Source: Candidatus Anderseniibacteriota bacterium (lineage in GTDB: Bacteria; Patescibacteriota; JAUYIX01). From it: a stretch of DNA of 64,000 nucleotides. The translations under genes were made by a program, and so were the position numbers. The notes below the pieces were generated by a model that had not been told where the DNA came from, made no database searches, and saw nothing but the letters and a program-made list of their open reading frames with translations. Below are positions 3,328-63,072 of this stretch, one piece after another. The stretch's first letter is position 1, and the number at the start of each line of letters is the position of its first letter. The stretch is from assembly GCA_046350855.1 (NCBI GenBank), contig JAXLZM010000002.1:142103-206102 (forward strand). The letters run 5' to 3'.

Positions 3328-5019
3328 TTGACGGACGTCAAGTCGCTTTGGGCTCGACTGGTCTTTACAGGCTCCAGCCTCACGTGCTCTAGTGGCGCTC
3401 GTATGAAGCGCCTCTCCTCTTTGGCTTTTTTGACCCCATTGAGCTTTGTCTTACTTGCCCTGCTCTATGTCGGGCTGGCCGTAGTACGCCTGCGCTATCC
3501 GGGTTTACATTTTGATGAGTTGCTCCACGTCAACGCCGCATTGGGTGGGTTGGACAACACATTTATATATAAAACGCTTTTTGGAGTGCCGTTTTTACTG
3601 ATGCCCTACATCGGTGCCCTCAAGGCCTGGCTGACCGGCCCACTCTTTGCGCTTTTTGGCGTCTCGGTAGTCTCGATTCGTTTGCCGCTGATTATCGTAA
3701 CCGCCGCTGCGCTGTATCTTCTTGGCAGAACCCTCCAGCGTTGGGTTGGTTTGTGGCCAGCTTTCGCGGTCTGCCTGCTGCTGGCGGTTGATCCGACTTT
3801 TATTGCGCTGACGCGGGCGGATTCTGGGCCGGTCGTGTTGCAATTTGCTCTCACGGTCACTGCCCTGAGTTGCCTGGGGACGTATCTACGTACTCGCCAG
3901 CTACTACCTTTGGTCGGTTTGGTGAGCTCGCTCGGTCTTGGTGTTTTTAATAAGCTCAACTTTATTTGGATCGCCAACGGGTTTGTCGTCGCTTTTGTTC
4001 TGGTCTACGCCCGCTCGCTCTGGGTCCAGCTGCGGGCCAGCACAGGCTCGGTCAACAAAAAGTGGTGGCATGTCTTACTCTTTTTGGGTGGCTACGGCCT
4101 GTCGGCGGCGTACTATCTGCTAGCAAGCTACAAATTTAATCTGTTTGATTTTTTGTCACCCCAAAAGTTTAACTGGTCGGCACGCCTCGCTAATCTCTCC
4201 AGTAGCTTATCCGGCTTGGTGCGGGGTGACCTTTTTTACAACTACGCCTATGGCCAACTACAGTGGAGAGGGGCCAGCATCGTTTTTTGGATCGTAGCTG
4301 CTACGAGTTTGGTTGGTGTGGCGTTACTCCTGAGTAAACGTTTATACAAACGCAGTGAGCGTCAGCTCGGGGTCTTTGCCCTGCTCTTGGTTACTGCGAC
4401 CTTGGCCCAGTTGATCGTCACGCGTAATGCGGTCTGGCCCTGGCACTACGCCACCCTCTATCCAGCACTCCAAATCGTTTTTGTGCTGGGACTGGTCGGC
4501 TACTATCGGCTCTTCCAAAAAACGGGCCTGCATTTTGCAAAACTTGCGAGTCTCCCGCTCTTGCTCCTGACCAGCACATACCTCCTCGGTGATATCGCCT
4601 ACGTTCGAGCCCTAGGACAACCCACCAAAAATGTCTACTGGTCACCGGCTATCTACACTCTCTACGACTACACTCAGCGTCTCGAGGGCCAAGTCGTCTC
4701 GGTCGATTGGGGAACCCACACGCAATTGCTCGGACTCTCGCAGGATCCGGCCAAGTACCACAATGCCAGTTTTTCTCTTAACCGTGATCCGTTGCCGAGC
4801 GATGCCAAGAGACAGTTTAATCAAGACTATTTAGAGCGGAATGTAACTGCGACTGAGTATTTTATTCTGCACACACCCCGGACAACGCTTTTTCCTGCAG
4901 CGCGCAAAAACTTTTTTGCCCTGGCAAGCGCTGCGGGCTACACCCCACGTTTGGTGCACACGGTTGCTGACGGTTCTACCACACTATTTGAGATCTATCA
5001 GCTCAAAAAACTAGGTTAG
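3328..5019 (+). CDS. GT-C fold polytopic membrane glycosyltransferase (ArnT/PMT-like), paralog 1 (first ATG at 3403; ORF opens at TTG 3328)
   Basis: About 12 predicted TM helices, conserved N-terminal ...VRLRYPGLHFDE... loop, large C-terminal soluble domain; paralogous to 10599, 12399, 15664 and 55837. Confidence 0.7.
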   Translation: MTDVKSLWARLVFTGSSLTCSSGARMKRLSSLAFLTPLSFVLLALLYVGLAVVRLRYPGLHFDELLHVNAALGGLDNTFIYKTLFGVPFLLMPYIGALKAWLTGPLFALFGVSVVSIRLPLIIVTAAALYLLGRTLQRWVGLWPAFAVCLLLAVDPTFIALTRADSGPVVLQFALTVTALSCLGTYLRTRQLLPLVGLVSSLGLGVFNKLNFIWIANGFVVAFVLVYARSLWVQLRASTGSVNKKWWHVLLFLGGYGLSAAYYLLASYKFNLFDFLSPQKFNWSARLANLSSSLSGLVRGDLFYNYAYGQLQWRGASIVFWIVAATSLVGVALLLSKRLYKRSERQLGVFALLLVTATLAQLIVTRNAVWPWHYATLYPALQIVFVLGLVGYYRLFQKTGLHFAKLASLPLLLLTSTYLLGDIAYVRALGQPTKNVYWSPAIYTLYDYTQRLEGQVVSVDWGTHTQLLGLSQDPAKYHNASFSLNRDPLPSDAKRQFNQDYLERNVTATEYFILHTPRTTLFPAARKNFFALASAAGYTPRLVHTVADGSTTLFEIYQLKKLG

Positions 5020-5104
5020 CCCTCGATTCTAAGAGCAGCGCGGAGAGGGCGCACAGCATTGCGTAAATCAGCAAAGTGGGGTATACCGATACATCCATTT
5101 TGCG

Positions 5105-7459
5105 ATGACAAAACCATCCAACGGGGCTAGCGAGGCTGTTGCGGCCCCGAGTGCCTCTCACATTGACCCTATTGACCTGCAAGATCCGCTCCGGCTGGAT
5201 GATCGGGTCGTTGCACGTGGGGCCGAACAGTACTACCAAGACCAGGCTGAACTCAACGCCGAGGCGATCCGTTTACAGATGCTCGAGGCGATCAACCAGG
5301 TTGGGCTGGTGCAGCAGGACTACCAAGCCCGCATCGCACGACTCCAGGAGCTCCTCAAGCCCAAGGTTTTTGTCCGTAAGGCCACCAAAAAAATCTTGCG
5401 TGCCGTCAAGCATCGTCTGGTGCGCTATGGTCGCGTCCTGATCGCCCGTCGAGACGCGCTCCAAATCCCACGTTTTACCGATATTTATTTTACGCAGCCC
5501 GCAGAGCCCGTCGTCTCGGTTATTATTCCGGTGTACAACTTGCTGCCGATCACCTTGGCCTGTTTGCGCTCCATCCTACGTCAACCCGAGCGGGTACCGT
5601 TTGAGATTATCGTGGTGGATGACGCCTCGCCCGATCCGTTGGTCCAGTCCGTTCTCAAACGCATCCCGGGCATCACCTACGTGCGCCAGCCCCAAAACGG
5701 CGGCTTTGTGCGCAGCTGTAATGCCGGAGCAAGTCGCGCTCGCGCCCCCATTTTGTATTTTTTGAACAACGACACCGAGGTCTGGTCTAACTGGCTCACC
5801 CCAATCGTACAGCTCTACCAAGACCGGACGGTCGGCGCGGTCGGCTCCAAAATGGTGTATCCCAAGCCGCCCGCGCAAGCCCACTGGACGCTGCAAGAAG
5901 CGGGCGGGATCGTCTTTAAAAGCGGTGAGGCCTGGAACTACGGCCGCACCGACCGCGCCGACCTCTCTCACTACAACTTTATCCGTGACGTAGATTTTTG
6001 TTCGGGGGCGGGCCTCTCGATCCGCCGCGATCTGTTTGAGCGTATTGGTGGGTTCAACTTAGCCTTGGCTCCGGGGTACTACGAGGATGTCGAACTTTGC
6101 TTTGCTGTACGCGACCTTGGGTATCGAGTGCTCTATCAGCCGCTCTCGGTCGTGACGCACTACGAGGGGGCTTCCTCGGCCAGCAAGGTGCTAAACGGTC
6201 AAAAACCAATGAAGGCCTACCAGATCGTCAATGGCCAAAAGTTTAAGCACATGCGGGTAAAAGAACTCACACAGCAGTGGCCTAAAGAGCTAGAAAAATT
6301 GCCCCTCATCGCGCGACGCAAACGCGGGATGCGCATCTGGTTTTTTGAGTGGTTCATCCCTATGTTTGATCGTGATTATGGCTCGGCCCGCACCGTGGCG
6401 CTCCTGCGTGAGCTGGCCCGGCACCATACGGTCACGTTTGTTGCACGTGACATTACCGATAAACCGCGCTACCGCGAGTTTTTGCAGAACCTCGGGGTCG
6501 AGGTGGTCCCGCGTGGGGTCGGCTCTAACCTCACGCACAAGCTAGCGGTTGAGGGTAAGTACATCGACCTGGCCATCGTGGCGCGACCCGATGTGATGCA
6601 CTATTTTTACCACCTGCTTAAACGTTTTGCGCCGCAAGCCCCGATCATTTACGACACGGTTGATATTCATCACATGCGCTTGGAGCGCGAACTGGCGCGT
6701 ACCACCGAGCCGCGCAAGTGTCGCGAAATCCAAGGCCAAATCACACTCTTTAAAACTCTCGAACTCGAGTACGGTCGTCGCTCCGACGCGATTTGGGCCA
6801 TTACACCGGCCGACCAAACCAATCTTTTGCGGTTGCTACCGGGTAAGCAAGTCGATATCGTCTCGGCTGCGCACGAGGCGCATCCAAGTCAGCGTACCTA
6901 CGCTGAGCGCGAGGGGCTGATGTATATCGGCTCGTTTCACCATCCGCCCAACATTGCCTCGATGGAGTTCTACATCAATGAGATCAACCCGCACCTGCAA
7001 CGCTTGGTGCCAGGTTTGACCCTCTCGGTCATCGGTCAAGCCGTGCCCGAGTGGCTCAAGCGCTTGGCCCGCGACAAAGCGGGGGAGACGGTCAAATTTA
7101 TTGGGACGGTCAGTGACGCCGGTCTCGAGCAGGCCTACGAGCGAGCCCGGCTCTTTGTAGCACCCGTGACCTTTGGCTCTGGTCTCAAAGGCAAGGTAGT
7201 CATGGCTATGTCGCGGGGGCTGCCGGTGGTGGCAACTTCGATGGCGGCCGAGGGGATTCCGGCTCGGGATGGTCTCTCAATCGATCTCGCGGACGAACCA
7301 CAACTGTTCGCCCAAAAAATCGCAGCGCTCTATTTAGATAACGCGGTTTGGCAGATGCGCTCGCAAGCCGCGCTCAAGGTGGTGCGTACTCACTACAGCG
7401 AGCAGCATTTTGCGCAAGAAATCAACGACTCATTTGCCAAACTTACCAGCCGACTTTAA
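5105..7459 (+). CDS. bifunctional glycosyltransferase: N-terminal GT2 (GT-A) domain plus C-terminal GT4-like (GT-B) domain
   Basis: VSVIIPVYN...VVDDASPD...NNDTEV (GT2 DxD-type) and C-terminal ...LFVAPVTFGSGLKGKVVMAMSRGLPVVAT... (GT-B, GT4-like). Confidence 0.75.
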   Translation: MTKPSNGASEAVAAPSASHIDPIDLQDPLRLDDRVVARGAEQYYQDQAELNAEAIRLQMLEAINQVGLVQQDYQARIARLQELLKPKVFVRKATKKILRAVKHRLVRYGRVLIARRDALQIPRFTDIYFTQPAEPVVSVIIPVYNLLPITLACLRSILRQPERVPFEIIVVDDASPDPLVQSVLKRIPGITYVRQPQNGGFVRSCNAGASRARAPILYFLNNDTEVWSNWLTPIVQLYQDRTVGAVGSKMVYPKPPAQAHWTLQEAGGIVFKSGEAWNYGRTDRADLSHYNFIRDVDFCSGAGLSIRRDLFERIGGFNLALAPGYYEDVELCFAVRDLGYRVLYQPLSVVTHYEGASSASKVLNGQKPMKAYQIVNGQKFKHMRVKELTQQWPKELEKLPLIARRKRGMRIWFFEWFIPMFDRDYGSARTVALLRELARHHTVTFVARDITDKPRYREFLQNLGVEVVPRGVGSNLTHKLAVEGKYIDLAIVARPDVMHYFYHLLKRFAPQAPIIYDTVDIHHMRLERELARTTEPRKCREIQGQITLFKTLELEYGRRSDAIWAITPADQTNLLRLLPGKQVDIVSAAHEAHPSQRTYAEREGLMYIGSFHHPPNIASMEFYINEINPHLQRLVPGLTLSVIGQAVPEWLKRLARDKAGETVKFIGTVSDAGLEQAYERARLFVAPVTFGSGLKGKVVMAMSRGLPVVATSMAAEGIPARDGLSIDLADEPQLFAQKIAALYLDNAVWQMRSQAALKVVRTHYSEQHFAQEINDSFAKLTSRL

Positions 7460-7471
7460 GCTAGTGCACCC

Positions 7472-8413
7472 ATGAAGCTCATCATCCAGATTCCCTGCTA
7501 CAACGAAGAAAAAACGCTGCCCTTAGTGCTGCGGGATATGCCGCGTGCTATCGCGGGGGTGGACGTGATCGAGACGCAGATCGTGGACGATGGTTCGACC
7601 GACAAAACGATCGAGGTCGCACGCCAACTCGGCGTCACACACATCGTCTCGTATGTAGGCAATAAAGGCCTCGGCAACGCCTTTAAACGCGGGGTCGAAC
7701 ACGCCCTGGCCGCCGGTGCCGACATCCTGGTTAATACGGACGGGGACAACCAGTACAAATCGAGTGACATTCCCCGCTTGGTGATCCCGATCGTGCACCG
7801 CAAAGCTGACATCGTGATCGGTAACCGCCAAACCGCCAAGATCGCGCATTTTTCTCCGCTCAAAAAGTTTTTCCAGTGGCTCGGCTCGAGCGTGACCCAG
7901 TATCTCTCGGGTCTGCGGGTGCCGGATGCGGTCAGTGGCTTTAGAGCCTACTCGCGTGAGTCCCTACTTGAGCTCAACGTCACCTCCGACTTTAGCTACG
8001 TTCTCGACACGATTATCCAGGCCAGTAAAAAGCGGCTTAAGATTGGCTACGTCGACATCGAGACCAACGCGCCAACCCGTCCCTCGCGACTCTTTAAGGG
8101 GATGTTCCAACACATTAAAAAGTCGACCTCCAACTTGCTGCGAGTGTATGCCATGTATGAGCCGCTCCGTACTTTTTCGCTCATCGGCAGCCTATTTTTG
8201 CTCTTGGGACTCTATCCGGTTTTGCGCTTTATCTATTTTTATCTGCAGCAAGAGGGTCAGGGGCACATCCAGTCCCTCATCGTGGGGGCCATGTGTGTGG
8301 TAATCGGCGTGCAATTTTTTGGGCTCGCAATTATAGGCGACTTGATCGCCAAGCAGCGTCGTTTGACCGAGGACTCGCTCTATCGTCTCAAGAAGGCTCA
8401 GTTCGGCAAATAG
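7472..8413 (+). CDS. polyprenyl-phosphate sugar synthase, GtrB/ArnC/Dpm1-like GT2 with C-terminal TM helices
   Basis: MKLIIQIPCYNEEKTL...VDDGSTDKT...NTDGDNQY plus two C-terminal TM helices, as in bactoprenol-phosphate glycosyltransferases. Confidence 0.8.
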   Translation: MKLIIQIPCYNEEKTLPLVLRDMPRAIAGVDVIETQIVDDGSTDKTIEVARQLGVTHIVSYVGNKGLGNAFKRGVEHALAAGADILVNTDGDNQYKSSDIPRLVIPIVHRKADIVIGNRQTAKIAHFSPLKKFFQWLGSSVTQYLSGLRVPDAVSGFRAYSRESLLELNVTSDFSYVLDTIIQASKKRLKIGYVDIETNAPTRPSRLFKGMFQHIKKSTSNLLRVYAMYEPLRTFSLIGSLFLLLGLYPVLRFIYFYLQQEGQGHIQSLIVGAMCVVIGVQFFGLAIIGDLIAKQRRLTEDSLYRLKKAQFGK

Positions 8414-9917
8414 CCATCGTCCACATCCCGGCGCTGCGGGTCTCGACCGTGGCAAAATACTTTTCGAGCAGGTTGCGCAGCTCCTTGGGCGAAAAATTCT
8501 GCACGTGTCCGGGGGTATTACCGAGCGCGCGCCAGTACTTGCCGCGCGCCATGTTGCCGATGCGCCAGATTGGCTCGCGCGGGACGCTCACGATCACGGT
8601 TTTAGCCACGCGGCGTAATTCTTTGGCGGCTTTTTCGGGTTCGTAGAGGTGCTCCATGACCTCGCCACAGAGTGCCACGTCAAAACTCCCGTCCTGAGCT
8701 GGGATCTCTAAAACACTCGCCACATCATACTGGACGCTTGGGTTGAGCTTGCGGGCCTTGTCAATCACTTCTTGCTCCAAATCCAGCCCCCTAATCTTGA
8801 GGTTGAACTGCTCGAGTAATTTTTTATCGACCACTCCCTCGCCGCAGCCGATATCAAGCAAGGTCACGGCCGAACCCTGCGCTGCCGTGCCGGCCACTTC
8901 ACCAACCAAGGTATAGAGGGTCGTAAAATAGCGCCCGACTAGCCAGCGCTCGATTGGATTCTTGGTGCCGTACTTATTAAAAAAGTTACCAGGTACGTTT
9001 TGGACCTTGTCACTTTTGAGCCAGGCCGCGACCCGTCGCAGCCCCAGACTAACTAAGGCAGCCAGGAGTTCTCCCGTAATCCACCAAAAGCGCGAGAGGA
9101 TCGCAGCGAGCACCGCCAACGGCTGACCCAGGGCTGGAGTGAGGAGCACCACCAGGGCCGCCTCACGCACACCCAAACCACCCGGGACGAACACCGCCAA
9201 AAATCCGATGGCCCAGGCTAAGACAAAACTGCCACCCGACAAAATAGGTGCCTCGAGACCGAGACTCTTGAGTAAAAAGAAAAAGCCAAGGCCAATGAGT
9301 AGCCACGCCAGAGCATAATTACTAAACAGCAGGTACAGCTCCCTAAAACGCAATTTGACGGGCGCGGTTATTTTGAACCGCTTAGCAGCGCGCGTAACGA
9401 TAAAACGCAGGACGGGCGGGTAGAGGAGTGCCACTCCAAGTATCGCCAGGCCGATGTATAGGACGATGCCCGTGACATCTGTAGCCAGCGAGGTCGTGGC
9501 GAGTAAGCCAAGGGCCAAAGCCGCCACGCTCATCAAGATGCTCTCGATCACGGTGCTTAATCCGGAATGAAAGTTAGAGACCCCTTTTTGTTTGGCAAGG
9601 TACGAGCGACCGACCGCAAACCAGATGGTACCCGGGACATATTTGCCAAACTGACTCGCGGTCCAGGCAAAGATGCCATCCGAGAGACGAATGTTCTGCC
9701 CGAGGCTTAAGAGCACCTCGCGCCAGTTAAAGGCCAGGATGAGGTAGCCGACTACGAGGAGGACAAGCGATAGGATCAAGGGTAGAGGTGAGAGCTGCAC
9801 TCTCTCCCACGGCACACGCGCAATCGCCTCGAGCGCTTTGACCACAAAAAAGTAGGTCACGACCCCCGCGATGAGGGCAAAAATGACTTGGCGCAAGAGG
9901 CTACCGCGGCGTTGCAT
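8388..9917 (-). CDS. fusion protein: N-terminal flippase-like polytopic membrane domain (MprF/LPG-synthase TM-like) plus C-terminal class I SAM methyltransferase
   Basis: About 8 TM helices in the first ~330 aa; then LLDIGCGEGVV...GLDLEQEVIDKARKL...VALCGEVMEHL, a methyltransferase motif I / post-I pattern. Confidence 0.6.
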   Translation of the reverse strand: MQRRGSLLRQVIFALIAGVVTYFFVVKALEAIARVPWERVQLSPLPLILSLVLLVVGYLILAFNWREVLLSLGQNIRLSDGIFAWTASQFGKYVPGTIWFAVGRSYLAKQKGVSNFHSGLSTVIESILMSVAALALGLLATTSLATDVTGIVLYIGLAILGVALLYPPVLRFIVTRAAKRFKITAPVKLRFRELYLLFSNYALAWLLIGLGFFFLLKSLGLEAPILSGGSFVLAWAIGFLAVFVPGGLGVREAALVVLLTPALGQPLAVLAAILSRFWWITGELLAALVSLGLRRVAAWLKSDKVQNVPGNFFNKYGTKNPIERWLVGRYFTTLYTLVGEVAGTAAQGSAVTLLDIGCGEGVVDKKLLEQFNLKIRGLDLEQEVIDKARKLNPSVQYDVASVLEIPAQDGSFDVALCGEVMEHLYEPEKAAKELRRVAKTVIVSVPREPIWRIGNMARGKYWRALGNTPGHVQNFSPKELRNLLEKYFATVETRSAGMWTMAICRTEPS

Positions 9918-9928
9918 AGGAGAGTGAG

Positions 9929-10765
9929 CTAGCTAACGCGACTCTTGAGCAAACAAAAGGCTCGCTCATCATGTTCCATAGACTCCGGCGTCGAGCGCAC
10001 GGTGTCGCCGCGGGTGATAAACGAGACGACCTCCCAGCCACTACGACGACAGAGGGTTTTGAGTCCTTCCGGTGTAAAGACAAAAAAATTGGTGGGATCG
10101 TTGTTGAGTTCGTGTTCGCCCACTAGATAGCCGAGCGACTGATCCGCAATGTTAAAGGCATGCTTGGGCAAAAAGCGACAGACTTTGGTGCTGAGCAAGC
10201 AATAGTCGGCATGGCGCGCGAGGTGCTCCAGCGCGTAAAAAGGATTTTTGAGGTGGTAGAGAATACCCAAAAAGATGACCAAACCGTAGCGCTCGGTCGG
10301 CAGGGTGAACTGCGTATCCAAATCGATGTCGTAAATTTTGACTCGCGAACGCAACGTTTTTTTGAGTAGCTTAGGTCCACGCAACGCATTTTGATGCGTC
10401 TCAGCGTGGTCGATGAGCTGCACTTTTTTGACACCGAGTTTTTCAAACATAAACCCAAAGTCACCGTCAGCGCCGCCGATATCTGCTAGGGGTTTGTCAC
10501 CGATCAGGGCTGAGAGGTTGCGCCATTTGCCCTGCAACAGGGCGTCCAGGTGTTGCACATTAGAGAGTGAGCCATAGGGATACCAGGTAAAGGGCGGCTT
10601 GAGATCTCTACGCATTTTGTCAAAGGCCACCACAAACTTAGGCAGCTCCCGTTTGAGGGTCTCGACGGTAATGGGCTGGTTTGGCATAGCACACGATAAT
10701 GGCACGTCGTTGGCCCTGCTGCAACCATTTTGGCTATTTGCGCTCGTGCGGCCTGCCGCTGGCAT
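9929..10765 (-). CDS. putative class I SAM-dependent methyltransferase (start may be the Met at 10687)
   Basis: DIGGADGDFG Gly-rich motif and downstream acidic residue consistent with a Rossmann-fold methyltransferase. Confidence 0.5.
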   Translation of the reverse strand: MPAAGRTSANSQNGCSRANDVPLSCAMPNQPITVETLKRELPKFVVAFDKMRRDLKPPFTWYPYGSLSNVQHLDALLQGKWRNLSALIGDKPLADIGGADGDFGFMFEKLGVKKVQLIDHAETHQNALRGPKLLKKTLRSRVKIYDIDLDTQFTLPTERYGLVIFLGILYHLKNPFYALEHLARHADYCLLSTKVCRFLPKHAFNIADQSLGYLVGEHELNNDPTNFFVFTPEGLKTLCRRSGWEVVSFITRGDTVRSTPESMEHDERAFCLLKSRVS

Positions 10766-12392: not shown

Positions 12393-12398
12393 ACTGCC

Positions 12399-14006
12399 GT
12401 GCAAAACACCCCCACCAAACCGACCCTCTTCAAAAAACTCCAAGCTTGGCTGCCCAGACTGGTCCCGGCCGTCCTGTTTTTAGGGATCACTTTTTTTGCG
12501 ACCTTTGCAGCCTATCGCTCGGTCTCGTCCTTTGATGGCGCCATGAACCTCCAGGTCCCCGTGACTTTAATTAAGGAGCACCGCTACGCAACCCACTACG
12601 GCTCCATTGTCGATTTTGATCATAAAATCCAGACCGGGCCTACGGTGCTAGTGCCCATCGCCCTCACGATCGGGGTGTTTGGCAAGTCGTTTTTCTCAGC
12701 CAGCTTGGTCAACTTGGTCTATCTATTGGGTTTTTTGGGTTTGCTGTTTTTGTTTGTACGGCGACTGGTTGGGCCTTGGTGGGCAACGCTGGCGGTCACT
12801 CTCGTTTTTGTAGTGCCCCGATTTTTAAATATCGCGATCAACCAGTATGGCGAAATCCCCGGCCTCTTTTTTGCCCTATCGGCTGCACTGGTGTTGGATC
12901 GGGTCGCACGTTCTCCCCGTCGACGCTTGTTGTTTGCGGTGGTCGCAGGGGTGCTACTCGGTCTCTCCGTCTTGACCAAGACCGTCATGCTTATCGTCGT
13001 GCCAAGTTTTGTGGTAGTGCTGCTCCTCGACCGTCTCTTAACCAAGCGGATTGCCTGGCGGCACTACCTGGCCTTTTTTATCTCGAGCGTTGTTCCGTAT
13101 GCCGCGTTTGAACTGTTTAAACTCTGGATGCTTGGTCTCACGCAATACAAACTGTGGTGGGCAACCGAACTCGGGGCGGTCTCCTCGCAGGCAGGGGTTG
13201 CCGAGGGTACCTTTAGTGATACGCCCGGGTTACTCCATAAGTTAGTGACACACATTGGTCTTCTGGGTAAGGAATTTGGCGCTTCGCAGATTTTGATGCT
13301 CGCTCTGGTTATTTTGCCGGTGCTGCTGGTGATTGGTAAAACCGTTCAGCTCGTCCGCCAAAAAAAGACGTTTACCTGGCCCCTCTCATTTTTTACGGTA
13401 GCGGGGATCGCCTACTCCTACTTTGGTTGGTGGCTCTTGATCACTCCTACCGCCCGGGCCTGGCACCGCCGCATTTTGGACGGTGTGATTGTGCAGGAGG
13501 TGCTTTTGGTCCTAACCTTAGCGGTCTTGGTTGTCTTGATCCGCAAAACTACAAGCCGACCCAAAAAAATCGGGGCACTGTTAGCAGCACTCCTCATAGT
13601 ACTCACCATGCTGTGGCAAGTCACCGTCTTTACTCCGCGCTTACGTACAGAGATCCAGGCGGCCAAAGTACGGCAGACGGTCGAGTACCTGGCGGGCAAG
13701 GTCTACCAGCTGCCCGAGGATGCCCGCATCTACGGCACAGGTTGGTGGCAATCCCCGCGCATGTCTTTTTTGTCTGGCCGAACCTTTGAAAGTATCAACC
13801 ACAACCCGCCTCAAGAAAGTGGGCCGCTCACGCATACATACTTTGTGGTAGAACGTGAGGCCTATGCGCTCAGTCGACCCGAGATCGATCGGATTTTATC
13901 CTGGTTTGACTACGAGGTGGTCGAGAACAAAAATTCGGGCAACGGCTACTACTCGATCTACCAGCTCAACTACTTTAACGAGCCGCCCGAGCAACGTGGC
14001 GAGTAA
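12399..14006 (+). CDS. GT-C membrane glycosyltransferase (ArnT/PMT-like), paralog 3
   Basis: Polytopic membrane protein with a large C-terminal domain; family resemblance to neighbours. Confidence 0.65.
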   Translation: MQNTPTKPTLFKKLQAWLPRLVPAVLFLGITFFATFAAYRSVSSFDGAMNLQVPVTLIKEHRYATHYGSIVDFDHKIQTGPTVLVPIALTIGVFGKSFFSASLVNLVYLLGFLGLLFLFVRRLVGPWWATLAVTLVFVVPRFLNIAINQYGEIPGLFFALSAALVLDRVARSPRRRLLFAVVAGVLLGLSVLTKTVMLIVVPSFVVVLLLDRLLTKRIAWRHYLAFFISSVVPYAAFELFKLWMLGLTQYKLWWATELGAVSSQAGVAEGTFSDTPGLLHKLVTHIGLLGKEFGASQILMLALVILPVLLVIGKTVQLVRQKKTFTWPLSFFTVAGIAYSYFGWWLLITPTARAWHRRILDGVIVQEVLLVLTLAVLVVLIRKTTSRPKKIGALLAALLIVLTMLWQVTVFTPRLRTEIQAAKVRQTVEYLAGKVYQLPEDARIYGTGWWQSPRMSFLSGRTFESINHNPPQESGPLTHTYFVVEREAYALSRPEIDRILSWFDYEVVENKNSGNGYYSIYQLNYFNEPPEQRGE

Positions 14007-14025
14007 GGCTACCTGAATGTGGTTC

Positions 14026-14733
14026 TTACTTTTTTGTAGCGACCGCTAAAATATTTTTGCCAAACCAGTACTGGGTCAGCCGATCAAGGCCCAGACTGAC
14101 TGGAAAGACGTACGTGTCGTAGGTTTTAACTTGTCCCGGTTGCAGGGTGCCCGAGCGGCGCAGCGTCTTGTACGTTAATGCGGCCAAAAAGCCGAGCGAG
14201 TCGACGTAGCGAATGGTATCAACGCTAAAACCAGCCGCTTGTAACTTTTTGTGGAGATCAGCTCGTGTATAACGGCGATGATGCCCTACCTCTTGGTCCA
14301 TTTTTGAGTACAAAACCGGAAAAGCTGGTACGTAGAGCATCAGCTTACCGCCGGGCTTGAGGGCCGCGGCCAGCTGGCGTAAGACTTGTTTGTCCTCTTT
14401 AATGTGCTCGAGTACGTTGAGGCTGTAGATGTACTCGGCTTGCGCCGGAAGTTGAGTGAGCGAGGCGACGCTCGCAAAACCATCCGCCTTGAGGGTGGCT
14501 TGCAGACTCGGATCCATCTCGACCGGGACGACCGAGTAGTGTTGCGCGCGCATAGCTTTGGCAAAGGTCCCGGTGCCCGCCCCAAAATCTACAACACCGC
14601 GGACCTCGGCTGGACAGTAACGTGTCACGAGCGACAGTAAAAATCCGTTGTAGCGCCGGGCCAGCGCCATGGCCTCGAGGTTAGAACGGCCGGTGTAAAT
14701 TGCGCCGCCTACTTTTTGAGTGTGCGCTTCCAT
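14026..14733 (-). CDS. class I SAM-dependent methyltransferase
   Basis: VVDFGAGTGTFAKAM motif I, acidic post-I residue, LKPGGKLMLYVP motif. Confidence 0.7.
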   Translation of the reverse strand: MEAHTQKVGGAIYTGRSNLEAMALARRYNGFLLSLVTRYCPAEVRGVVDFGAGTGTFAKAMRAQHYSVVPVEMDPSLQATLKADGFASVASLTQLPAQAEYIYSLNVLEHIKEDKQVLRQLAAALKPGGKLMLYVPAFPVLYSKMDQEVGHHRRYTRADLHKKLQAAGFSVDTIRYVDSLGFLAALTYKTLRRSGTLQPGQVKTYDTYVFPVSLGLDRLTQYWFGKNILAVATKK

Positions 14734-15623
14734 AGTTCAAAGGATTCGTTGTGGTACTTAACCGCGGAGTCGAGAATTAAGCCGATGGCGAGCGCCAGAC
14801 TGGCGAGGATGCTCAGTCCCACTGCCAAAATCGCCAAGGGTACGTGTGAGACATACTTGGTTTCTATGTAGTCGGCGATCGGTACTAGACCGGCCGCCAA
14901 GGCACCCAGTGCGATTACACCACTCAGGCCCGAGAAAAACAGCAACGGTCGATAGTGCTTACAGATGGAGAACAGCGCTCGCAGGATGATCGCCCCATCG
15001 CGGTAGGTGTTGAGTTTAGAGGTGCTGCCGGTTGGTCGGGCGCGGTAAGCCACCTGCTGCTCGACGATCAAAAAGTTTTTACTGGCGGCTTGCAAGGTCA
15101 TTTCGGTCTCGATTTCAAAACCGGCCGAGGTCAGCGGTACCGTTTTGACAAATTCTCGGGAGAACACTCGGTAGCCCGACAGCACGTCCGTCACCCGCAC
15201 CTTAAACAAACGTGAGATCAGGCTGGCGACCAGGCGGTTGCCAAAGTTATGGAAGAGCCTAAAGGATTGCTCCGAAAAATCCTGCAAACGAGTCGCCACC
15301 ACCATATCCGCTCCGGTTAGTTCTGCCAGGTGAATCAATCGTCCGGCCTCCTCAGCCGGGTAGGTGTCATCCCCATCCACCATCACATAGAGATCGGCAT
15401 CCACCGCGGCAAACATATGCCGGACCACGTAGCCCTTACCCTGCCGACGCGAGGCGATCACGGTGGCTCCCGCCTGGCGCGCTTTGTCGGCAGAGCCATC
15501 GCGTGAGTTATTATCAAAGACATATATCTGCGCGGTTGGGAGGTGACGTGTAAAGTCCTCGACCACCTTAGCGATGGTCAAGTGCTCGTTATAGCAGGGT
15601 ATCAGGACCGCAATCGTAGGCAT
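14709..15623 (-). CDS. polyprenyl-phosphate sugar synthase, GtrB/Dpm1-like GT2 (second copy)
   Basis: MPTIAVLIPCYNEHLTI...VFDNNSRDGS...VDGDDTY plus C-terminal TM helices. Confidence 0.8.
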   Translation of the reverse strand: MPTIAVLIPCYNEHLTIAKVVEDFTRHLPTAQIYVFDNNSRDGSADKARQAGATVIASRRQGKGYVVRHMFAAVDADLYVMVDGDDTYPAEEAGRLIHLAELTGADMVVATRLQDFSEQSFRLFHNFGNRLVASLISRLFKVRVTDVLSGYRVFSREFVKTVPLTSAGFEIETEMTLQAASKNFLIVEQQVAYRARPTGSTSKLNTYRDGAIILRALFSICKHYRPLLFFSGLSGVIALGALAAGLVPIADYIETKYVSHVPLAILAVGLSILASLALAIGLILDSAVKYHNESFELWKRTLKK

Positions 15624-15663
15624 ACAGAATGGTCGTACATACTAGCAAAGTTGAACTCACTGT

Positions 15664-17286
15664 CTAGAGCCGCTCAACGCGACAGAGCGAGTACTTGGCT
15701 CGGGTAATATGTGCACTAAACTTTTGACAGTTTTGATCGAGTAGTCTCAGGTTGAACTCAGCTAAAACCCGCTCGATCCGCAGGTCATCCTGTTTTTGGA
15801 ACAGCGCAAAAAGTGGATCGTGTGTCTCGGCTAAGGTAGGGCGGATAAACCGATCCACAAACCCGGCGTTGTCGTAGCGCTCGCCGTTCCAAGCTACGAG
15901 GCTACCGTCGATTCGAACAAAGCGATACTGCTCCGGAAAAAACGGAATCAAGTACGAGCGTGGACCGGAGCCAGGCAAGAGAACGGTCGCCGGTTTGGTG
16001 TCGGTGAGACGCGGTCGCACGTCAAAAAAATCTTGGGAGAATTCCACACTGCCAAAATCTGGGATGTTCATCCAGCCGATGCAGAGGACCAGGGCGAGCG
16101 ACTGCAGGACGGTGCGTAGTTTTGGGCGAGTGCGCGGTATCAAAAATACGAGCGCGGCAAACGCGACCAGTGGTGCGAGCAGCTCGAGAGTTTGAGCATA
16201 GCGGTAGTCATAGTAAACAAAACCCCACACCAAAAAAGAGACGCTGTATAAAACGAGCAGCGCAATTGAGACGCGATGTGCGGCGACCCGGGCGCGTTGC
16301 TTTTTTAACAAGAGGTACGCGATCGCCGCGAGCGAGAGGAGCAACAGGGTTACCACCAGGGCGTGACGCGCATCCTGGAACGGCCACTGCATGGCGTGGA
16401 TTCCTTTTTGAAGGAGCGCAAACGGAAAAAGCAGGATATCCCAGACGGAGTCGGCCGGTTTGGGTGCATAGAGAACCTTAGCGGTAAAGTAGACCGGTGA
16501 CTTAAAAAACTGGTTGGCAAAAGGGAAGACCGGGTTGTGGTAGCGCGTCCAGAGCACGTACATCCAATGCCCGTTAGCCAGTAAAAATCCGGCGCCCGTG
16601 GCAACCAGCCAGGTTCCAAAGTACACTGCTCTCTTTTTGAGCGACCCCGACTTAATTACCACAACTGCGGCGGTGGTGCCGATAGCGAGAGCCGCGCCGG
16701 TCAATTTGAGTCCAGCTCCTGCGCCGACTAACACCCCGGCGCTTAAGAAAAGAGCGGCCGCCATCCGGGGCTTGGTTGAGTAGGCAGAGCGCAGCAGGAG
16801 CCACAGGCCCAACAAAAAGAAGACGCTCACAAAATTATCATTAAAGGTTTTGCCGTGTTCGGCCAGCGTAACCGGCGCAATAAATCCGGCTACCGCGATG
16901 AGGAGAGCCCAGAGGGTCGCCACTGTCTTTTGATAGTGCTGTCGGGTGAACTCACGCGCGGCCAAAAAGAGCAGCCAAAAGTTGAGACCGTGTAAGACCC
17001 CCAGCCAAAAAACCGTCACCCGGGCCGAAAAATGCGTCACAAGTAGATAAAACGGCAAGTCGAGGAGGGGGTTGATAAAAGTTTGAACCTGCGCGGGGGC
17101 GATATCAAAATCCAGACGACCGTTTAGAAAAGCAAAGGCGTTGTACAAGTGGTAGTTAGCGAGGTCCCAGTTGGCATCCTGTTTAAACCAAATCGCGAGC
17201 AGACCAAAGCCAACCAGCGAGGCAGCAACGGCGAGGATCCAAAGAACGCGACGCATGCTAGACGTTAAATTTAAACTCCATGACAT
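15664..17286 (-). CDS. GT-C membrane glycosyltransferase, paralog 4 (start possibly the Met at 17256, which removes most of the overlap with ychF)
   Basis: About 12 TM helices and a C-terminal soluble domain; head-to-tail with ychF. Confidence 0.65.
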   Translation of the reverse strand: MSWSLNLTSSMRRVLWILAVAASLVGFGLLAIWFKQDANWDLANYHLYNAFAFLNGRLDFDIAPAQVQTFINPLLDLPFYLLVTHFSARVTVFWLGVLHGLNFWLLFLAAREFTRQHYQKTVATLWALLIAVAGFIAPVTLAEHGKTFNDNFVSVFFLLGLWLLLRSAYSTKPRMAAALFLSAGVLVGAGAGLKLTGAALAIGTTAAVVVIKSGSLKKRAVYFGTWLVATGAGFLLANGHWMYVLWTRYHNPVFPFANQFFKSPVYFTAKVLYAPKPADSVWDILLFPFALLQKGIHAMQWPFQDARHALVVTLLLLSLAAIAYLLLKKQRARVAAHRVSIALLVLYSVSFLVWGFVYYDYRYAQTLELLAPLVAFAALVFLIPRTRPKLRTVLQSLALVLCIGWMNIPDFGSVEFSQDFFDVRPRLTDTKPATVLLPGSGPRSYLIPFFPEQYRFVRIDGSLVAWNGERYDNAGFVDRFIRPTLAETHDPLFALFQKQDDLRIERVLAEFNLRLLDQNCQKFSAHITRAKYSLCRVERL

Positions 17287-18367
17287 CGCCGTCTTTGACC
17301 AGGTACTCTTTGCCTTCGGCGCGGACTTTGGCCTGCTCGCGGGCTTTAGGGTAGCCGCCGGCGTCTATAAGGTCCTTCCAAAAGACCGTCTCAGCTTTGA
17401 TAAATCCACGCTCAAAATCGGTATGGATGACGCCGGCGGCCCGCGGAGCGTGTGCCCCACGCTTCACCGTCCAGGCCCGCGACTCATCTGGTCCGGTGGT
17501 AAAAAAGGTAATCAATCCGAGAGCCTCGTAGGCGGCTTTAATCACGTCATCGAGTCCAGAGTGATCCAGTCCCATCTCTTGCAAAAAAGCGGCCTTGTCT
17601 TGGGCCTCGAGTTCTGAGAGCTCCGCTTCGATTTTGGCCGAGACGGGAACCACAATGACCGACCCCGTTGGCTTTTTGTGAGCGGCCGTCACCGACGCAA
17701 CCAGTGCCGTGCGCTTTTGTGCATCGCGGTATTGTTCTTCTGACAAGTTGACCACGTACAGGAGCGGCTTAGCGGTCAAGAGCCCAAGTTGCTGTGCAAA
17801 GGGTTGCTCCTCCTCGGTCAGTGAAACTTCGCGTGCAGCCTGACCGGCATCCAATGCACTTTTAAGTTTGAATAAGGCAGTTTGTTCTGCCAGCGCCTCT
17901 TTTTTACCGGACTTAGCCAGACGTGCAACTGATTGCAGTCGCTTAGTGACGGTCTCTAGATCAGCCAGCGCCAACTCAGTATTAATTGCGTCGATGTCGT
18001 TGGTTGGATCGATCTTGCCGTGCACGTGCGTTACGTTGCTATCCTCAAAGACCCGTACGACCTCAGCCACCGCGGCTACCTCTCTAATGTGCGACAAAAA
18101 TTTGTTGCCCAGACCCTCGCCTTTGTGTGCGCCGCGCACCAGCCCTGCGATGTCCACAAACTCCACGATGGTCGGGACGACTTTGGCTGAGGCGGACAAT
18201 TTGGCCAGAGCGTCTAGTCGTTGATCCGGAACGGCCACCACCCCGACGTTAGGTTCGATCGTAGTAAAAGGGTAGTTCTCAGCGGCAACCTGTTTTTTGG
18301 TTAGGGCCTTAAACAACGTCGACTTACCGACGTTGGGTAGCCCCACGATGCCGATCTTGATGTTCAT
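17258..18367 (-). CDS. ychF: ribosome-binding ATPase YchF (Obg-like GTPase family)
   Basis: MNIKIGIVGLPNVGKSTLFKALT P-loop, TGS domain at the C-terminus. Confidence 0.9.
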   Translation of the reverse strand: MNIKIGIVGLPNVGKSTLFKALTKKQVAAENYPFTTIEPNVGVVAVPDQRLDALAKLSASAKVVPTIVEFVDIAGLVRGAHKGEGLGNKFLSHIREVAAVAEVVRVFEDSNVTHVHGKIDPTNDIDAINTELALADLETVTKRLQSVARLAKSGKKEALAEQTALFKLKSALDAGQAAREVSLTEEEQPFAQQLGLLTAKPLLYVVNLSEEQYRDAQKRTALVASVTAAHKKPTGSVIVVPVSAKIEAELSELEAQDKAAFLQEMGLDHSGLDDVIKAAYEALGLITFFTTGPDESRAWTVKRGAHAPRAAGVIHTDFERGFIKAETVFWKDLIDAGGYPKAREQAKVRAEGKEYLVKDGDVMEFKFNV

Positions 18368-18423
18368 CCGGCTAGCGTAAAGCGATCGCTTGCATCGGTC
18401 AATCCAGTCGGTAGCATGCCGGT

Positions 18424-19776
18424 ATGCCCCAAGTGGTCCCGACCATTTTTACCGAGGAGGCCATCCGCGGCCAGTACCCGGGTGAACTCAACGAGGGTTC
18501 GGCCTACTTGCTCGGTCGTGCTTTTGCGCAAGTCTTGCGAGCGCGCAAGGTGGTGCTCGGCCGTGACGCGCGGCCCTCCTCACACAGTTTGGCTGCCAGC
18601 TTTACTAAAGGTTTATTGGAGGAGGGGGTAACGGTGCACGATCTCGGTTGGGCCAGCACCCCCTACCTCTCCTTTGCCTGCCAGCAGGCCGACTACGACG
18701 GCTCGGTCATGGTCACGGCCTCGCACCTGCCCGCCGACAGCAATGGCTTTTTGCTGACCGCGGCGCGCGGTAAACCCCTGACCCTCGAGCGGGGACTGAC
18801 CGAACTGCGAGACCTGCTGCGTCAGGGCTTGCCCTATCGACCCGTCCCGGTCGGTACGGTGGCCGCCAAAGATTACTCGACCATTTATCTCGATGCCATC
18901 ACGCGTCAGCGTATTATCAAAAAGTGCACGGTCGCGATCGATACAAGCAATGGCATGGCGGGCTTAGTCGTCCCCGCGATCTTGCAGCGCTTTCCGCAAG
19001 TGACCCTCGTGCCGATTAACTTTGAGATCGACGGGCTGTTTCCTGGTCACGTGCCCAACCCCCTTTTGCCCGATGCGCTGATCAAACTCAAGGGCGCGGT
19101 GCGTCTCAACAAGTGCGATTTAGGAGTAGCCTTTGACGGCGACGGCGATCAGATCGCCTTTATCACTCCTCAGGGTGAACTCCTCCCCGGCGACTTTGTG
19201 GGGGTGTTATTAGCCCAGCGTCAACTCCTCAAGCATCCGGCCGAGACGATTCTGCACGATGTACGTGCCTCCTGGGCCGTGGCCGAAGAAGTCAAAAAAA
19301 TCGGTGGTCGTCCGATTGAGACACGTACCGGCAGCGGCCACATCAAACAAGCCATGCGCGAGCAGCAGGCGATTTTTGCCGCCGACCCGAGCATGCACTA
19401 CTACTTTAAAGATTTTTACGGTAGCGATAACGCTGATTACGCCTTGCTCGAGATGCTCGAGCTCTTGAGCGAGGCCCAGCAGCCCCTGCAAGAGTTGGTT
19501 GCCCCGCTTAAAAAGTATATTCAGTCGGGCGAGATCAGTCTCCCGGTCACCGATCCACAGGCTGTTTTGTCCGCCGTGGCCACGCACTTTAAAAATGCAC
19601 AGCAAAAGAATCTCGATGGCCTCTCACTGACGTACCCCGATTGGCATCTCAACATTCGCTCCGCTCTGGCGCAACCGATCGTGCACTTTAACCTCGAGGC
19701 TAAATCCTCGGCCCTGCTCAAAGAAAAACGCAACGAGCTGGCAGAACTCCTGCAGCCGTTTGTACAACCCAATTAA
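18424..19776 (+). CDS. phosphomannomutase / phosphoglucomutase (alpha-D-phosphohexomutase)
   Basis: Active-site Ser loop TASHLPADSNGF, metal-binding DGDGDQ, four-domain length. Confidence 0.85.
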   Translation: MPQVVPTIFTEEAIRGQYPGELNEGSAYLLGRAFAQVLRARKVVLGRDARPSSHSLAASFTKGLLEEGVTVHDLGWASTPYLSFACQQADYDGSVMVTASHLPADSNGFLLTAARGKPLTLERGLTELRDLLRQGLPYRPVPVGTVAAKDYSTIYLDAITRQRIIKKCTVAIDTSNGMAGLVVPAILQRFPQVTLVPINFEIDGLFPGHVPNPLLPDALIKLKGAVRLNKCDLGVAFDGDGDQIAFITPQGELLPGDFVGVLLAQRQLLKHPAETILHDVRASWAVAEEVKKIGGRPIETRTGSGHIKQAMREQQAIFAADPSMHYYFKDFYGSDNADYALLEMLELLSEAQQPLQELVAPLKKYIQSGEISLPVTDPQAVLSAVATHFKNAQQKNLDGLSLTYPDWHLNIRSALAQPIVHFNLEAKSSALLKEKRNELAELLQPFVQPN

Positions 19777-54170: not shown

Positions 54171-54674
54171 ATGGCTAGCTCACGTTCTGCCCAACCAACC
54201 GCACTAACCGCTGCCCAACGCGCGGGTGCCAGCACCGCTACCGGTCTGGCCGCCCCTGACATCGAATCCGCCCACTGGATTAACGTCAAAAACAACGGGT
54301 TTGGCTCGCTCACGGGTAAAATCGTCGTAGTGAACTTTTGGACTTACGCCTGTCACCATAGCCAATCGCTCCTCCGTCACCTCTCTGTTTTACAACGCAC
54401 CTACCGGCGCCATCCCGTCCAGATTATCGGGGTGCACACGCCGGAGTTTTTGTTTGAAGCAGATGTGGACAACGTTAAACGCGCCGTCCGGGACTTTCGC
54501 ATCAATTGGCCAGTCGCGGTCGACAACGATTACGAGAACTTCAACCGCTTTGGCGTGCGCTTTTGGCCGACCACCGTCTTGATCGATGCCGATGGTCGCG
54601 TAGCCGGGCGCTTTGTCGGGGCCGGGAGCTTCCCGGATCTGGCCCGCAGCATCCATGTTATACTGCCGCGGTAA
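54171..54674 (+). CDS. thioredoxin-fold (TlpA/redoxin-like) protein with CxxS-type motif
   Basis: VVNFWTYACHHSQ where WCxxC is expected; redoxin-like length. Confidence 0.5.
   Translation: MASSRSAQPTALTAAQRAGASTATGLAAPDIESAHWINVKNNGFGSLTGKIVVVNFWTYACHHSQSLLRHLSVLQRTYRRHPVQIIGVHTPEFLFEADVDNVKRAVRDFRINWPVAVDNDYENFNRFGVRFWPTTVLIDADGRVAGRFVGAGSFPDLARSIHVILPR

Positions 54675-61410: not shown

Positions 61411-63072
<1,662 letters not shown>

Follow-up and report, generated by a model that had tools for sequence, protein, structure and literature searches.

What do some 16 kb of glycosyltransferase and methyltransferase genes do together in a bacterium of the Candidate Phyla Radiation (CPR)? The question is raised by positions 3328–19776 of the stretch of DNA analysed here, which comprises 64,000 nucleotides (nt) of a metagenome-assembled genome (MAG) of Candidatus Andersenbacteria and is called the window in the following. 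We read this interval as an envelope-glycosylation locus and give this reading a probability of roughly 60%. A first-pass annotation of the same DNA had proposed that a lipid-linked sugar donor is made, flipped across the membrane and used by GT-C glycosyltransferases outside, with methylation. This logic is supported by two donor synthases (C and I), by a flippase-like domain (in D), by the predicted folds of two GT-C proteins (A and J) and by the sequences of two more (F and G). The whole scheme was inferred from sequence, predicted folds and synteny. The families and folds of the components, the operon layout, the conserved synteny and the occurrence of a gene cassette in fused and unfused form are what the analysis shows.

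Gene layout of the locus

The interval comprises 11 intact glycosylation-type genes and one embedded housekeeping gene. All open reading frames (ORFs) listed in the first pass were found to exist and to be intact in their places. The ORF at 17258–18367, which that set omits, lies inside the interval and is YchF, not a glycosylation gene. The features are as follows (aa, amino acids; SAM, S-adenosylmethionine):

A, 3403–5019, + strand: GT-C transferase, PMT_2/ArnT-like; 538 aa according to the gene caller, the ORF reaches up to 3328
B, 5105–7459, + strand: cytoplasmic two-domain glycosyltransferase, GT2 + GT4
C, 7472–8413, + strand: polyprenyl-phosphate sugar synthase, GT2 with two C-terminal transmembrane helices, DGD motif
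D, 8388–9917, − strand: LPG_synthase_TM (PplT/UPF0104) domain (9087–9875) and SAM methyltransferase domain (8448–8885)
E, 9929–10687, − strand: SAM methyltransferase, 252 aa according to the gene caller; co-directional with D and upstream of it
F, 10794–12392 (ORF from 10599), + strand: GT-C transferase, paralog of A
G, 12399–14006, + strand: GT-C transferase, PMT_2 type
H, 14026–14733, − strand: SAM methyltransferase
I, 14709–15623, − strand: second polyprenyl-phosphate hexose synthase, AglJ-like GT2 with two C-terminal transmembrane helices, DGD motif
J, 15664–17256, − strand: GT-C transferase of a GT87/DUF2029-like family
K (YchF), 17258–18367, − strand: housekeeping ATPase (464 bits, cutoff 279)
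L, 18424–19776, + strand: hexose-phosphate mutase of the PGM/PMM superfamily
M, 55837–57072, + strand: possible short GT-C-like membrane protein, 411 aa, 36 kb from the locus

The genes are tightly packed or overlapping and form four co-directional strings. In the string A-B-C (+), the intergenic gaps are 85 and 12 nt. The other strings are E-D (−), F-G (+) and YchF-J-I-H (−), with an overlap of 25 nt between the start of H and the end of I. The flanks are housekeeping genes: RecA, SSB and ribosomal protein S6 upstream, and TrpRS, RNase J, an SBP_bac_5 protein and SecG downstream. The G+C content (GC) of the locus is the same as that of the flanks (0.53–0.57). Six proteins of the window are identical to NCBI entries (MFO0704776–MFO0704792) of a Candidatus Andersenbacteria MAG, encoded on a contig of 229,149 bp; the lineage is Patescibacteria group, Parcubacteria group, Candidatus Anderseniibacteriota. 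The NCBI product names are generic ('glycosyltransferase family 39 protein' for A, 'glycosyltransferase family 2 protein', 'phosphomannomutase/phosphoglucomutase').

Synteny in other CPR genomes

The set of genes is not a chance assembly, as the same gene order was found in two other CPR genomes. In a genome of the Parcubacteria group (locus L084), the order of the window was kept, with A (51% identity), B (57%), C (82%), the D fusion (64%), F (68%), G (55%) and the end of J (38%). E, H and I were absent from L084. The closest homolog of J (42%) was located on an 868-kb contig (loci L002 and L003). The order in L002 was SecG, SBP5, RNase J, WbsX, a methyltransferase, TrpRS, the mutase (65%), J and YchF (82%), followed by a 606-aa membrane protein, a stand-alone LPG_synthase_TM protein, a GT4 protein, a Methyltransf_21 protein, C (86%), B (55%) and A (54%). 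From these gene orders, the locus appears to consist of a core A-B-C-D(-F-G-J) and variable accessory genes. As the locus of the closest relative lies on an 868-kb contig, the host genome is probably small too.

The stop codon of YchF is 1 nt away from the start of J, and YchF adjoins J on the 868-kb contig as well. The spacing and the shared neighbours suggest that YchF, a translation-associated protein, is co-transcribed with envelope genes.

Donor synthases and mutase

Two polyprenyl-phosphate sugar synthases had been predicted in the first pass, and this holds: C and I are similar to ArnC, DPMS and AglJ, with a DxD motif and two C-terminal transmembrane helices. C matched ArnC (E-value: 1e-13) and the DPMS of P. 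furiosus (E-value: 7e-12) in the PDB over its full length. In NCBIfam, it matched AglJ (106.7 bits), PpgS and ArnC, all below cutoff. C is also the most conserved gene of the locus (86% in L002 and 82% in L084, versus 82% for YchF). I shares 27% identity with C. It reached 225.8 bits with TIGR04182 (AglJ), for which the equivalog cutoff is 325, and 93.5 bits with a dolichyl-phosphate hexose transferase model. Its PDB matches were DPMS (5mlz, E-value: 4.5e-9) and ArnC.

L contains the PGM_PMM domains I, II and III and the motifs TASH and DGDGD. It had been annotated as a phosphomannomutase. The superfamily is correct; the mannose specificity was not confirmed, since no equivalog cutoff was reached in NCBIfam (PMM/PGM: 339 of 618 bits; archaeal GlmM: 290 of 439; CpsG: 251 of 801). 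L is a probable supplier of hexose-1-phosphate. Its homolog adjoins J in L002 and a C-J pair in another locus (L138).

GT-C transferases

Four GT-C paralogs had been counted in the first pass. The GT-C assignment stands for all four, based on the fold for A and J and on the sequence for F and G, and the term paralogs is true only of A and F. Searches of PDB sequences with A, G and J, as single sequences and with family profiles, gave nothing meaningful, so the folds were taken from AlphaFold models. PF02366, the specific PMT model, was not matched by A, F, G or J.

A matched PMT_2 in Pfam (31 bits, cutoff 26.1). The AlphaFold2 model of A has a predicted local distance difference test (pLDDT) value of 93.5, and its best 40 Foldseek matches in the PDB were all GT-C proteins. 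The top match was ArnT (5f15; E-value: 6e-7, TM-score: 0.52), followed by AglB, STT3, PglB, DPY19, ALG9, AftA and Emb. A carries a C-terminal soluble domain. The family is small, with 32 matches in 5.8 billion proteins (k-mer-seeded search), and the named members are mostly from CPR bacteria. An alignment of 27 sequences showed D38, E39, K74, R93, D140, K184, H348 and D435-W-G to be invariant. D38-E39 is located right after the first transmembrane helix, and the DWG triplet is part of the soluble domain. A DE motif in loop 1 characterises GT-C enzymes of the PMT and ArnT types; the Asp of this motif has been proposed to act as the catalytic base (PMC8698208).

F is 33% identical to A over 554 aa (E-value: 3e-67), and its PMT_2 match is below cutoff. 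Fifteen of the 16 family-invariant residues are kept. At the remaining one, D38, F has Ser and reads YASE, not FDE; all 27 members of the A family have Asp at this loop-1 site. The F ortholog in L084 (2090–3586, − strand; 68% identical) also has YASE. Hence, the change from Asp to Ser is conserved and cannot be put down to a sequencing error. F may act as a partner without catalytic activity, or it may be a GT-C enzyme with a different mechanism.

G matched PMT_2 above cutoff (46 bits, Pfam). The similarity of G to the A family (hhalign probability: 95%) was confined to a PMT_2 core of 116 columns. J had no Pfam match at all, including none to PF09594 (GT87/DUF2029). Some homologs of J are named GT87/DUF2029 or carry PF09594, and one (P0105) is fused to a GtrA domain. 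The AlphaFold2 model of J has a pLDDT of 91.8 and a predicted TM-score of 0.92, and its 26 best Foldseek matches in the PDB were all GT-C proteins (TM-score: 0.31–0.48). They include STT3, ALG9, AglB, ArnT, Pmt4, ALG3/12, Emb, AftD, AftB, GPI-MT-I and PimE, with PimE on rank 18. A profile of the J family (35 members) found no match among PDB sequences, PimE included. In the alignment of these 35 sequences, D30, Y34, Y37 and D50 were invariant in the first loop, just after the first transmembrane helix. No profile similarity was found between the J and A families (hhalign: 4.5%). Judged from these comparisons, the GT-C proteins of the locus belong to three separate lineages, namely A/F, G and J.

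The first-pass annotation had named oligosaccharyltransferase (OST) or O-antigen ligase types as the classification that would speak against its reading. Neither was found. A and F as OSTs were rejected because WWD or W-x-D-x-G did not occur in A, F, G, J or M; the only trace was the DWG triplet of A and F. An O-antigen ligase identity was rejected because Wzy_C was not matched in Pfam. Moreover, the A family has the DE motif.

A fifth GT-C transferase had been proposed at 55837 (M). It could not be secured, because its matches were all sub-threshold (PMT_2: 16 bits, E-value 0.013; LA_3751/2: 44 of 200 bits in NCBIfam), and no profile similarity to the A family was found. It was therefore rejected as a secure fifth member. 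The start of M is overlapped by 4 nt by a 444-aa ORF (54506–55840, + strand) that has no family match, and the two ORFs may be a separate small glycosylation unit. Outside the window, the same MAG encodes a third A-like GT-C protein (P0139, locus L170, 74–2122), which is 37% identical to A with the DE motif intact. Its gene adjoins a DUF212 gene (divergent PAP2 phosphatase-like), whose product could recycle polyprenyl phosphates.

Methyltransferases and the flippase-like domain of D

The three methyltransferases predicted in the first pass (D, E and H) were all found, and D is more than the plain methyltransferase described there, as a flippase-like domain is fused to it. The N-terminal part of D (aa 15–277) matched PF03706, LPG_synthase_TM, with 57 bits (cutoff 33.4). 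In NCBIfam, a flippase-like family (TIGR00374) and the N-terminal region of MprF were matched below cutoff, with 23.7 of 600 bits for bifunctional MprF. The C-terminal part is a class I SAM methyltransferase (Methyltransf_11, 64.5 bits, aa 354–439) with the motif LLDIGCGEG. D was rejected as an MprF because the synthase domain LPG_synthase_C (PF09924) was not found, and as a plain methyltransferase because of the fused PF03706 domain.

Fusions that resemble D over the full length are rare, with five matches in 5.8 billion proteins. Among the best 150 representatives out of 1.84 billion, about 10–12 were such fusions, and the rest were mostly stand-alone methyltransferases of ~200 aa (35–44% identity) and PF03706 proteins of ~300 aa. 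Rare fusions of PplT and SAM methyltransferase have already been listed (10.1101/2022.03.11.483950). UPF0104 is predicted to be a glycosylation flippase, and its archaeal neighbours are AglD-like GT2 and PMT/STT3-like genes (PMC5898192). The membrane domain of D is thus a candidate flippase for the lipid-linked sugar. The first pass had included a flipping step with no gene named, and the PplT/UPF0104 domain of D supplies the putative flippase. No match to GtrA, SMR (ArnE/F, Rv3789) or MATE flippases was found in any ORF of the locus, and the locus has no unassigned coding space.

H matched Methyltransf_23 with 68 bits and has the motif VVDFGAGTG. E reached 26.3 bits with the same family, just below the cutoff of 27, and 40 bits with TIGR04290. 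Homologs of E (42–43%) are located ~2 kb from a B homolog in two Lentzea genomes.

Glycosyltransferase B

B had been described as a GT2-GT4 fusion, and both domains were matched: Glycos_transf_2 with 94 bits (aa 138–314; domain aa 138–359) and Glyco_trans_1_4 with 76.5 bits (aa 605–744). The PDB matches were ppGalNAc-T/GT2 and PimA. The CPR orthologs of B are 55–57% identical. In a scan of genome contigs with the B alignment, all matches listed had an identity of at most 39%, with no close CPR genome among them. Among these matches, the homologs were 35–39% identical over residues ~124–767 and came mostly from Lysobacterales, and also from Actinobacteria, Verrucomicrobia and Cyanobacteria. The N-terminal ~130 aa of B have no counterpart in the non-CPR homologs. 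Outside CPR, the homologs closest to B, C and J (for B, among the matches listed) are proteobacterial, with 33–49% identity.

One neighbourhood of a B homolog was examined in detail, that of Rhodanobacter fulvus (L021, 10085–21296), and it is O-antigen-like. It contains etfB/etfA, a WbsX+RgpF fusion, a GT4 gene and a sugar epimerase, as well as a PF03706 gene directly before a C homolog (49% identity). In a Verrucomicrobiae MAG (L052), B, a PF03706 gene and C also occur together. By their gene content, these neighbourhoods link B with polysaccharide synthesis and with the pair of C and PplT. The joint occurrence of B, the PF03706 gene and C in Rhodanobacter and the Verrucomicrobiae MAG suggests gene movement between phyla. 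This hints at a B/PF03706/C module that was laterally exchanged between CPR and other phyla.

The cassette in unfused form

A search of metagenomes, for which C orthologs were aligned, gave 50 loci of at least 5 kb. As tblastn is insensitive to the co-occurrence of divergent membrane proteins, a crude count of transmembrane helices was added as a proxy. By this crude count, 31 of the 50 loci had, within 3.5 kb of the C homolog, a protein with six or more transmembrane helices and a length of 380 aa or more. A methyltransferase of the D type was found near the C homolog in seven of the 50 loci, and it was directly downstream in three of them (L087, L115 and L155). In L155, C and the methyltransferase are followed by a GT-C gene (PMT/PMT_2, Pfam). 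In L115, a divergent PMT_2 gene lies beside C, followed by the methyltransferase and a protein with six transmembrane helices. L087 has a protein with 11 transmembrane helices, C, the methyltransferase and a truncated PMT_2-like protein. In L088, C is followed farther along by the methyltransferase and then LPG_synthase_TM.

Three more loci came from searches seeded with the methyltransferase. L167 contains a GT4 gene, PMT_2 (713 aa), GT2 (292 aa) and an LPG_synthase_TM gene (305 aa) that overlaps the methyltransferase gene (203 aa). By its domains, the last pair looks exactly like an unfused D, in the same domain order. In L168, GT2 is followed by the methyltransferase, and in L166, the methyltransferase is beside GT2 and an ABC-2 transporter. 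Hence, the cassette of a GT2 synthase, a D-type methyltransferase and a GT-C protein, with or without PplT, recurs in unfused form in unrelated metagenomic contigs. The locus itself holds two sets of synthase, methyltransferase and GT-C. As I is overlapped by H, with J in the same string, I, H and J can be regarded as the second set.

Proposed pathway and points against it

According to our model, L would supply hexose-1-phosphate, and the nucleotide-sugar step would be encoded elsewhere. B, as a soluble GT2 + GT4 protein, would build or extend a glycan on the cytoplasmic side. C and I would each use a nucleotide sugar to load polyprenyl phosphate with a hexose at the inner membrane face. Each synthase would have a methyltransferase partner, namely the domain of D for C and H for I, and the lipid-linked sugar would probably be O-methylated. 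This step is placed on the cytoplasmic side because SAM is available there. E would be partnered with B. The MprF-flippase-like domain of D would then move the lipid-linked sugar to the outer face, where A, F, G and J would attach the sugar to at least one envelope acceptor, which could be a wall glycopolymer, a lipoglycan or surface proteins. The donor lipid, the sugar, the methylation target, the flipping, the acceptors and the activity of F are inferred here.

In its most specific form, the model describes a lipid-linked donor that is made by a GtrB/AglJ-like synthase, methylated by a dedicated SAM methyltransferase of ~200 aa, then flipped by PplT and then installed by GT-C enzymes. This would be an undescribed four-component route to O-methylated surface sugars; we put it forward tentatively, as a possible but doubtful version. 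If true, synthase, methyltransferase and GT-C, with PplT or without it, would form a module that is widespread and has gone unrecognised.

Several points weigh against an envelope-glycosylation pathway of this kind. C, I and L do not reach any equivalog cutoff in NCBIfam, and consequently the sugar is not fixed by family assignment. F lacks the proposed catalytic Asp. Genes for a phosphoglycosyltransferase, a polymer exporter (ABC or Wzx) and an LCP ligase are missing from the locus, which leaves the acceptor of B and the export of its product unexplained. The flippase activity of PF03706 is documented for phospholipids (MprF) and only predicted for polyprenyl-linked sugars. No characterised precedent was found for methylation of a polyprenyl-monophosphate sugar before flipping, and the methyltransferases could act on other substrates. 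Finally, part of the co-occurrence statistics is based on the crude counting of transmembrane helices.

Alternative explanations

If the locus served protein O-glycosylation only, A, F and G would be Pmt-like (GT39) O-mannosyltransferases that use polyprenyl-phosphate mannose from C or I. Their targets would be secreted proteins, pilins or S-layer proteins, as for Ppm1/Pmt of Actinobacteria, and B would be unrelated. The NCBI name of A (family 39), the PMT_2 matches of A and G, the adjacent mutase of the PMM/PGM type and the invariant DE in loop 1 of the A family, a PMT hallmark (PMC8698208), are in line with this. Pilin glycosylation is also suspected in CPR bacteria, where it is unexplored (PMC11623550). 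However, PF02366 remained unmatched by A, F, G and J, and PMT_2 covers ArnT-like transferases of lipids and glycans as well; ArnT is the best fold match of A. The Rhodanobacter region, with B, PF03706 and C next to WbsX/RgpF in an O-antigen-like setting, speaks for a polysaccharide as the acceptor. J resembles GT87, whose characterised members act on lipoglycans. No acceptor protein was identifiable, and we consider O-glycosylation alone to be unlikely. We rate a role in membrane-lipid remodelling as quite unlikely. Here, D would be a phospholipid or glycolipid methyltransferase-flippase, the glycosyltransferases would build on diacylglycerol or phosphatidylglycerol, and the GT-C enzymes would act on lipids as ArnT does. 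A UPF0104/YbhN protein is reportedly mentioned in one study in connection with glucosaminyl-phosphatidylglycerol synthesis. PF03706 is the flippase domain of MprF, and PplT of E. coli interacts with enzymes of phospholipid synthesis (10.1101/2022.03.11.483950). The best structural match of A is a lipid A transferase, and the window contains a stand-alone LPG_synthase_C ORF. On the other hand, the matches of C and I to polyprenyl-phosphate sugar synthases extend over the whole proteins, C-terminal transmembrane helices included. In unrelated contigs, D-type methyltransferase genes are located directly between such synthases and GT-C genes, and the match of B to the model of the synthase of N-acetylglucosaminyl-phosphatidylglycerol (GlcNAc-PG) was negligible (15.6 bits). 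Both explanations are partly compatible with an envelope-glycosylation locus and differ from it mainly in the acceptor.

The other two explanations depart further from it. With N-glycosylation, A and F would be short OSTs related to AglB, PglB and STT3, which move an oligosaccharide built by B from polyprenyl diphosphate to Asn. The scores of AglB, STT3 and PglB against the A model nearly match that of ArnT (E-values: 7e-7 to 1e-5), and the DWG triplet in the soluble domain of the A family is invariant. Nevertheless, the absence of WWDxG from A, F, G and J disfavours this explanation. The proteins comprise 530–540 aa with a soluble domain of only ~130 aa, and the profile search of PDB sequences found no OST. 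C and I are predicted to make donors of the monophosphate type, and a phosphoglycosyltransferase with which a diphosphate-linked glycan could begin is missing from the locus. Loop 1 of the A family reads DE, in contrast to the DxD pattern of OSTs; this was also counted against N-glycosylation, which we regard as most improbable. It is very unlikely, too, that the locus is a loose neighbourhood of unrelated glycosyltransferase and methyltransferase genes, adjacent to each other in a gene-dense small genome and with no joint function. The embedded YchF would fit this, as would the varying set of genes from C to YchF (L084 lacks E, H and I; in L002, GT4 and Methyltransf_21 are present instead). 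It is disfavoured by the conserved synteny, with the core order A-B-C-D(-F-G-J) kept at 38–86% identity in three CPR genomes, and by the fusion in D of neighbours that are separate elsewhere. The four co-directional strings with tight packing or overlap, as well as the recurrence of sub-cassettes in unrelated lineages, also argue against it. An envelope-glycosylation locus remains our preferred reading.

Possible role of the locus

CPR bacteria (Patescibacteria) are ultrasmall and are thought to live attached to other microbes. About 16 kb of a probably small genome are spent on two synthases, four GT-C enzymes and three methyltransferases, which suggests that surface glycans matter for this lifestyle. 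Possible roles of the glycans are host recognition, phage evasion and wall integrity. A study on Saccharibacteria calls the glycosylation processes of CPR bacteria unexplored (PMC11623550).

Other features of the window

Six kb downstream of the locus, a 732-aa ORF (25981–28179, − strand) combines a GH18 chitinase-like domain and three CWB2 repeats, and a similar gene is found beside the locus of L002. CWB2 repeats bind wall glycopolymers in Firmicutes. The protein could be a client of the glycan made by the locus; this fits a wall glycopolymer but proves nothing.

The GC content is low between ~36000 and 54000 (0.41–0.49, compared to 0.53–0.58 elsewhere in the window). The genes in this block include three histidine-kinase ORFs, His_Phos_1, SDR, NUDIX, GrpB, PALP and EamA, and it may be a horizontally acquired island. 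The stand-alone LPG_synthase_C ORF (49456–50064, 202 aa) corresponds to the synthase half of MprF, with the flippase half missing.

A GroES-like ORF (61078–61377, + strand) is followed by GroEL, which is in frame for only 209 aa (61432–62061). The rest of GroEL, up to 63150, is recognisable with at least five switches of the reading frame. The frame breaks reflect either a pseudogene or local indel errors of the assembly. The window contains one tRNA (tRNA-Ser), and no Rfam RNA family was matched in it at gathering thresholds.

Comparison with known systems

The general scheme is already known. In the well-characterised three-component systems, which have flippases of the GtrA, SMR or MATE type and include GtrA/GtrB/Gtr* (Shigella, Salmonella), CsbB/GtcA/YfhO and GtlA/GtlB (both acting on teichoic acids), GacI/J/K/L and the GT136 pentofuranose systems, a GT2 enzyme charges polyprenyl phosphate, a membrane protein flips the product and a GT-C enzyme adds the sugar to a pre-made glycan outside (PMC11127046, PMC8035078). 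The locus is similar in that GT2 synthases with C-terminal transmembrane helices and GT-C enzymes are encoded together. It differs in having a PplT/UPF0104 (MprF-like) domain in the place of the flippase. Furthermore, the locus combines two synthases with four GT-C enzymes, and each synthase has a methyltransferase as its partner. One of these methyltransferases is fused to the flippase-like domain, and the host is a CPR bacterium.

The Agl pathway of Haloferax comprises Dol-P-hexose synthases (AglJ/AglD), AglR in the role of a flippase, the Dol-P-Man GT-C enzyme AglS and the SAM methyltransferase AglP (PMC3871713). In archaea, arCOG00899 (UPF0104), arCOG00563 (PMT/STT3-like) and arCOG00897 (AglD-like) form a gene neighbourhood (PMC5898192). 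The locus shares this trio of GT2, UPF0104 and PMT/STT3-like genes as well as the presence of a SAM methyltransferase, and among curated families, I is closest to AglJ. The differences are that I stays below the AglJ cutoff of 325, that no OST of the AglB type is present and that the host is bacterial. In AglD, UPF0104 is fused to GT2, whereas in the locus it is fused to a methyltransferase.

In Actinobacteria, Ppm1, Pmt (GT39), PimE and Rv2181 (GT87) and Mpt mannosylate proteins, lipomannan and lipoarabinomannan (LAM), and MtxS/MtxT adds methylthioxylose (MTX) to LAM, so that a modified sugar is delivered by a GT-C enzyme from a decaprenyl-phosphate donor (PMC3485146, PMC8780516, PMC11127046). 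The likeness is in the polyprenyl-phosphate donor, which is used by PMT-like and GT87-like GT-C enzymes, and in a phosphomannomutase-type gene that feeds the pathway. However, the cutoffs of GT39 (PF02366) and GT87 (PF09594) were not reached by the proteins of the window, and there is no machinery for phosphatidylinositol mannosides. MTX is derived from methylthioadenosine and not via a SAM methyltransferase acting on a lipid-linked sugar, for which reason MtxS/MtxT was rejected as a precedent for the methylation.

The ArnC/ArnE-ArnF/ArnT pathway is similar with regard to the full-length match of C to ArnC, the best match of the A model to ArnT and the loop-1 Asp, which is at the site of the catalytic base of ArnT (PMC8698208). 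It differs from the locus, which has no ArnA, ArnB, ArnD or SMR flippase. As a rule, CPR bacteria are described as monoderms that lack lipid A. MprF and PplT/YbhN share the PF03706 domain with the N-terminal part of D. In contrast to MprF, D has a SAM methyltransferase instead of LPG_synthase_C, and its gene context consists of glycosyltransferases and not of phospholipid synthesis.

In the literature searched, we found no description of a PplT-type domain in the place of GtrA, SMR or MATE, of its fusion to a methyltransferase in this setting, of the recurring unfused cassette of synthase, methyltransferase and GT-C, or of a conserved GT-C paralog with the catalytic Asp changed to Ser. The fusion of methyltransferase and flippase-like domain and the unfused cassette that recurs in unrelated bacteria lead to a testable hypothesis: polyprenyl-linked sugars would be flipped by domains of the MprF type, and the lipid-linked donor could be the substrate of methylation.

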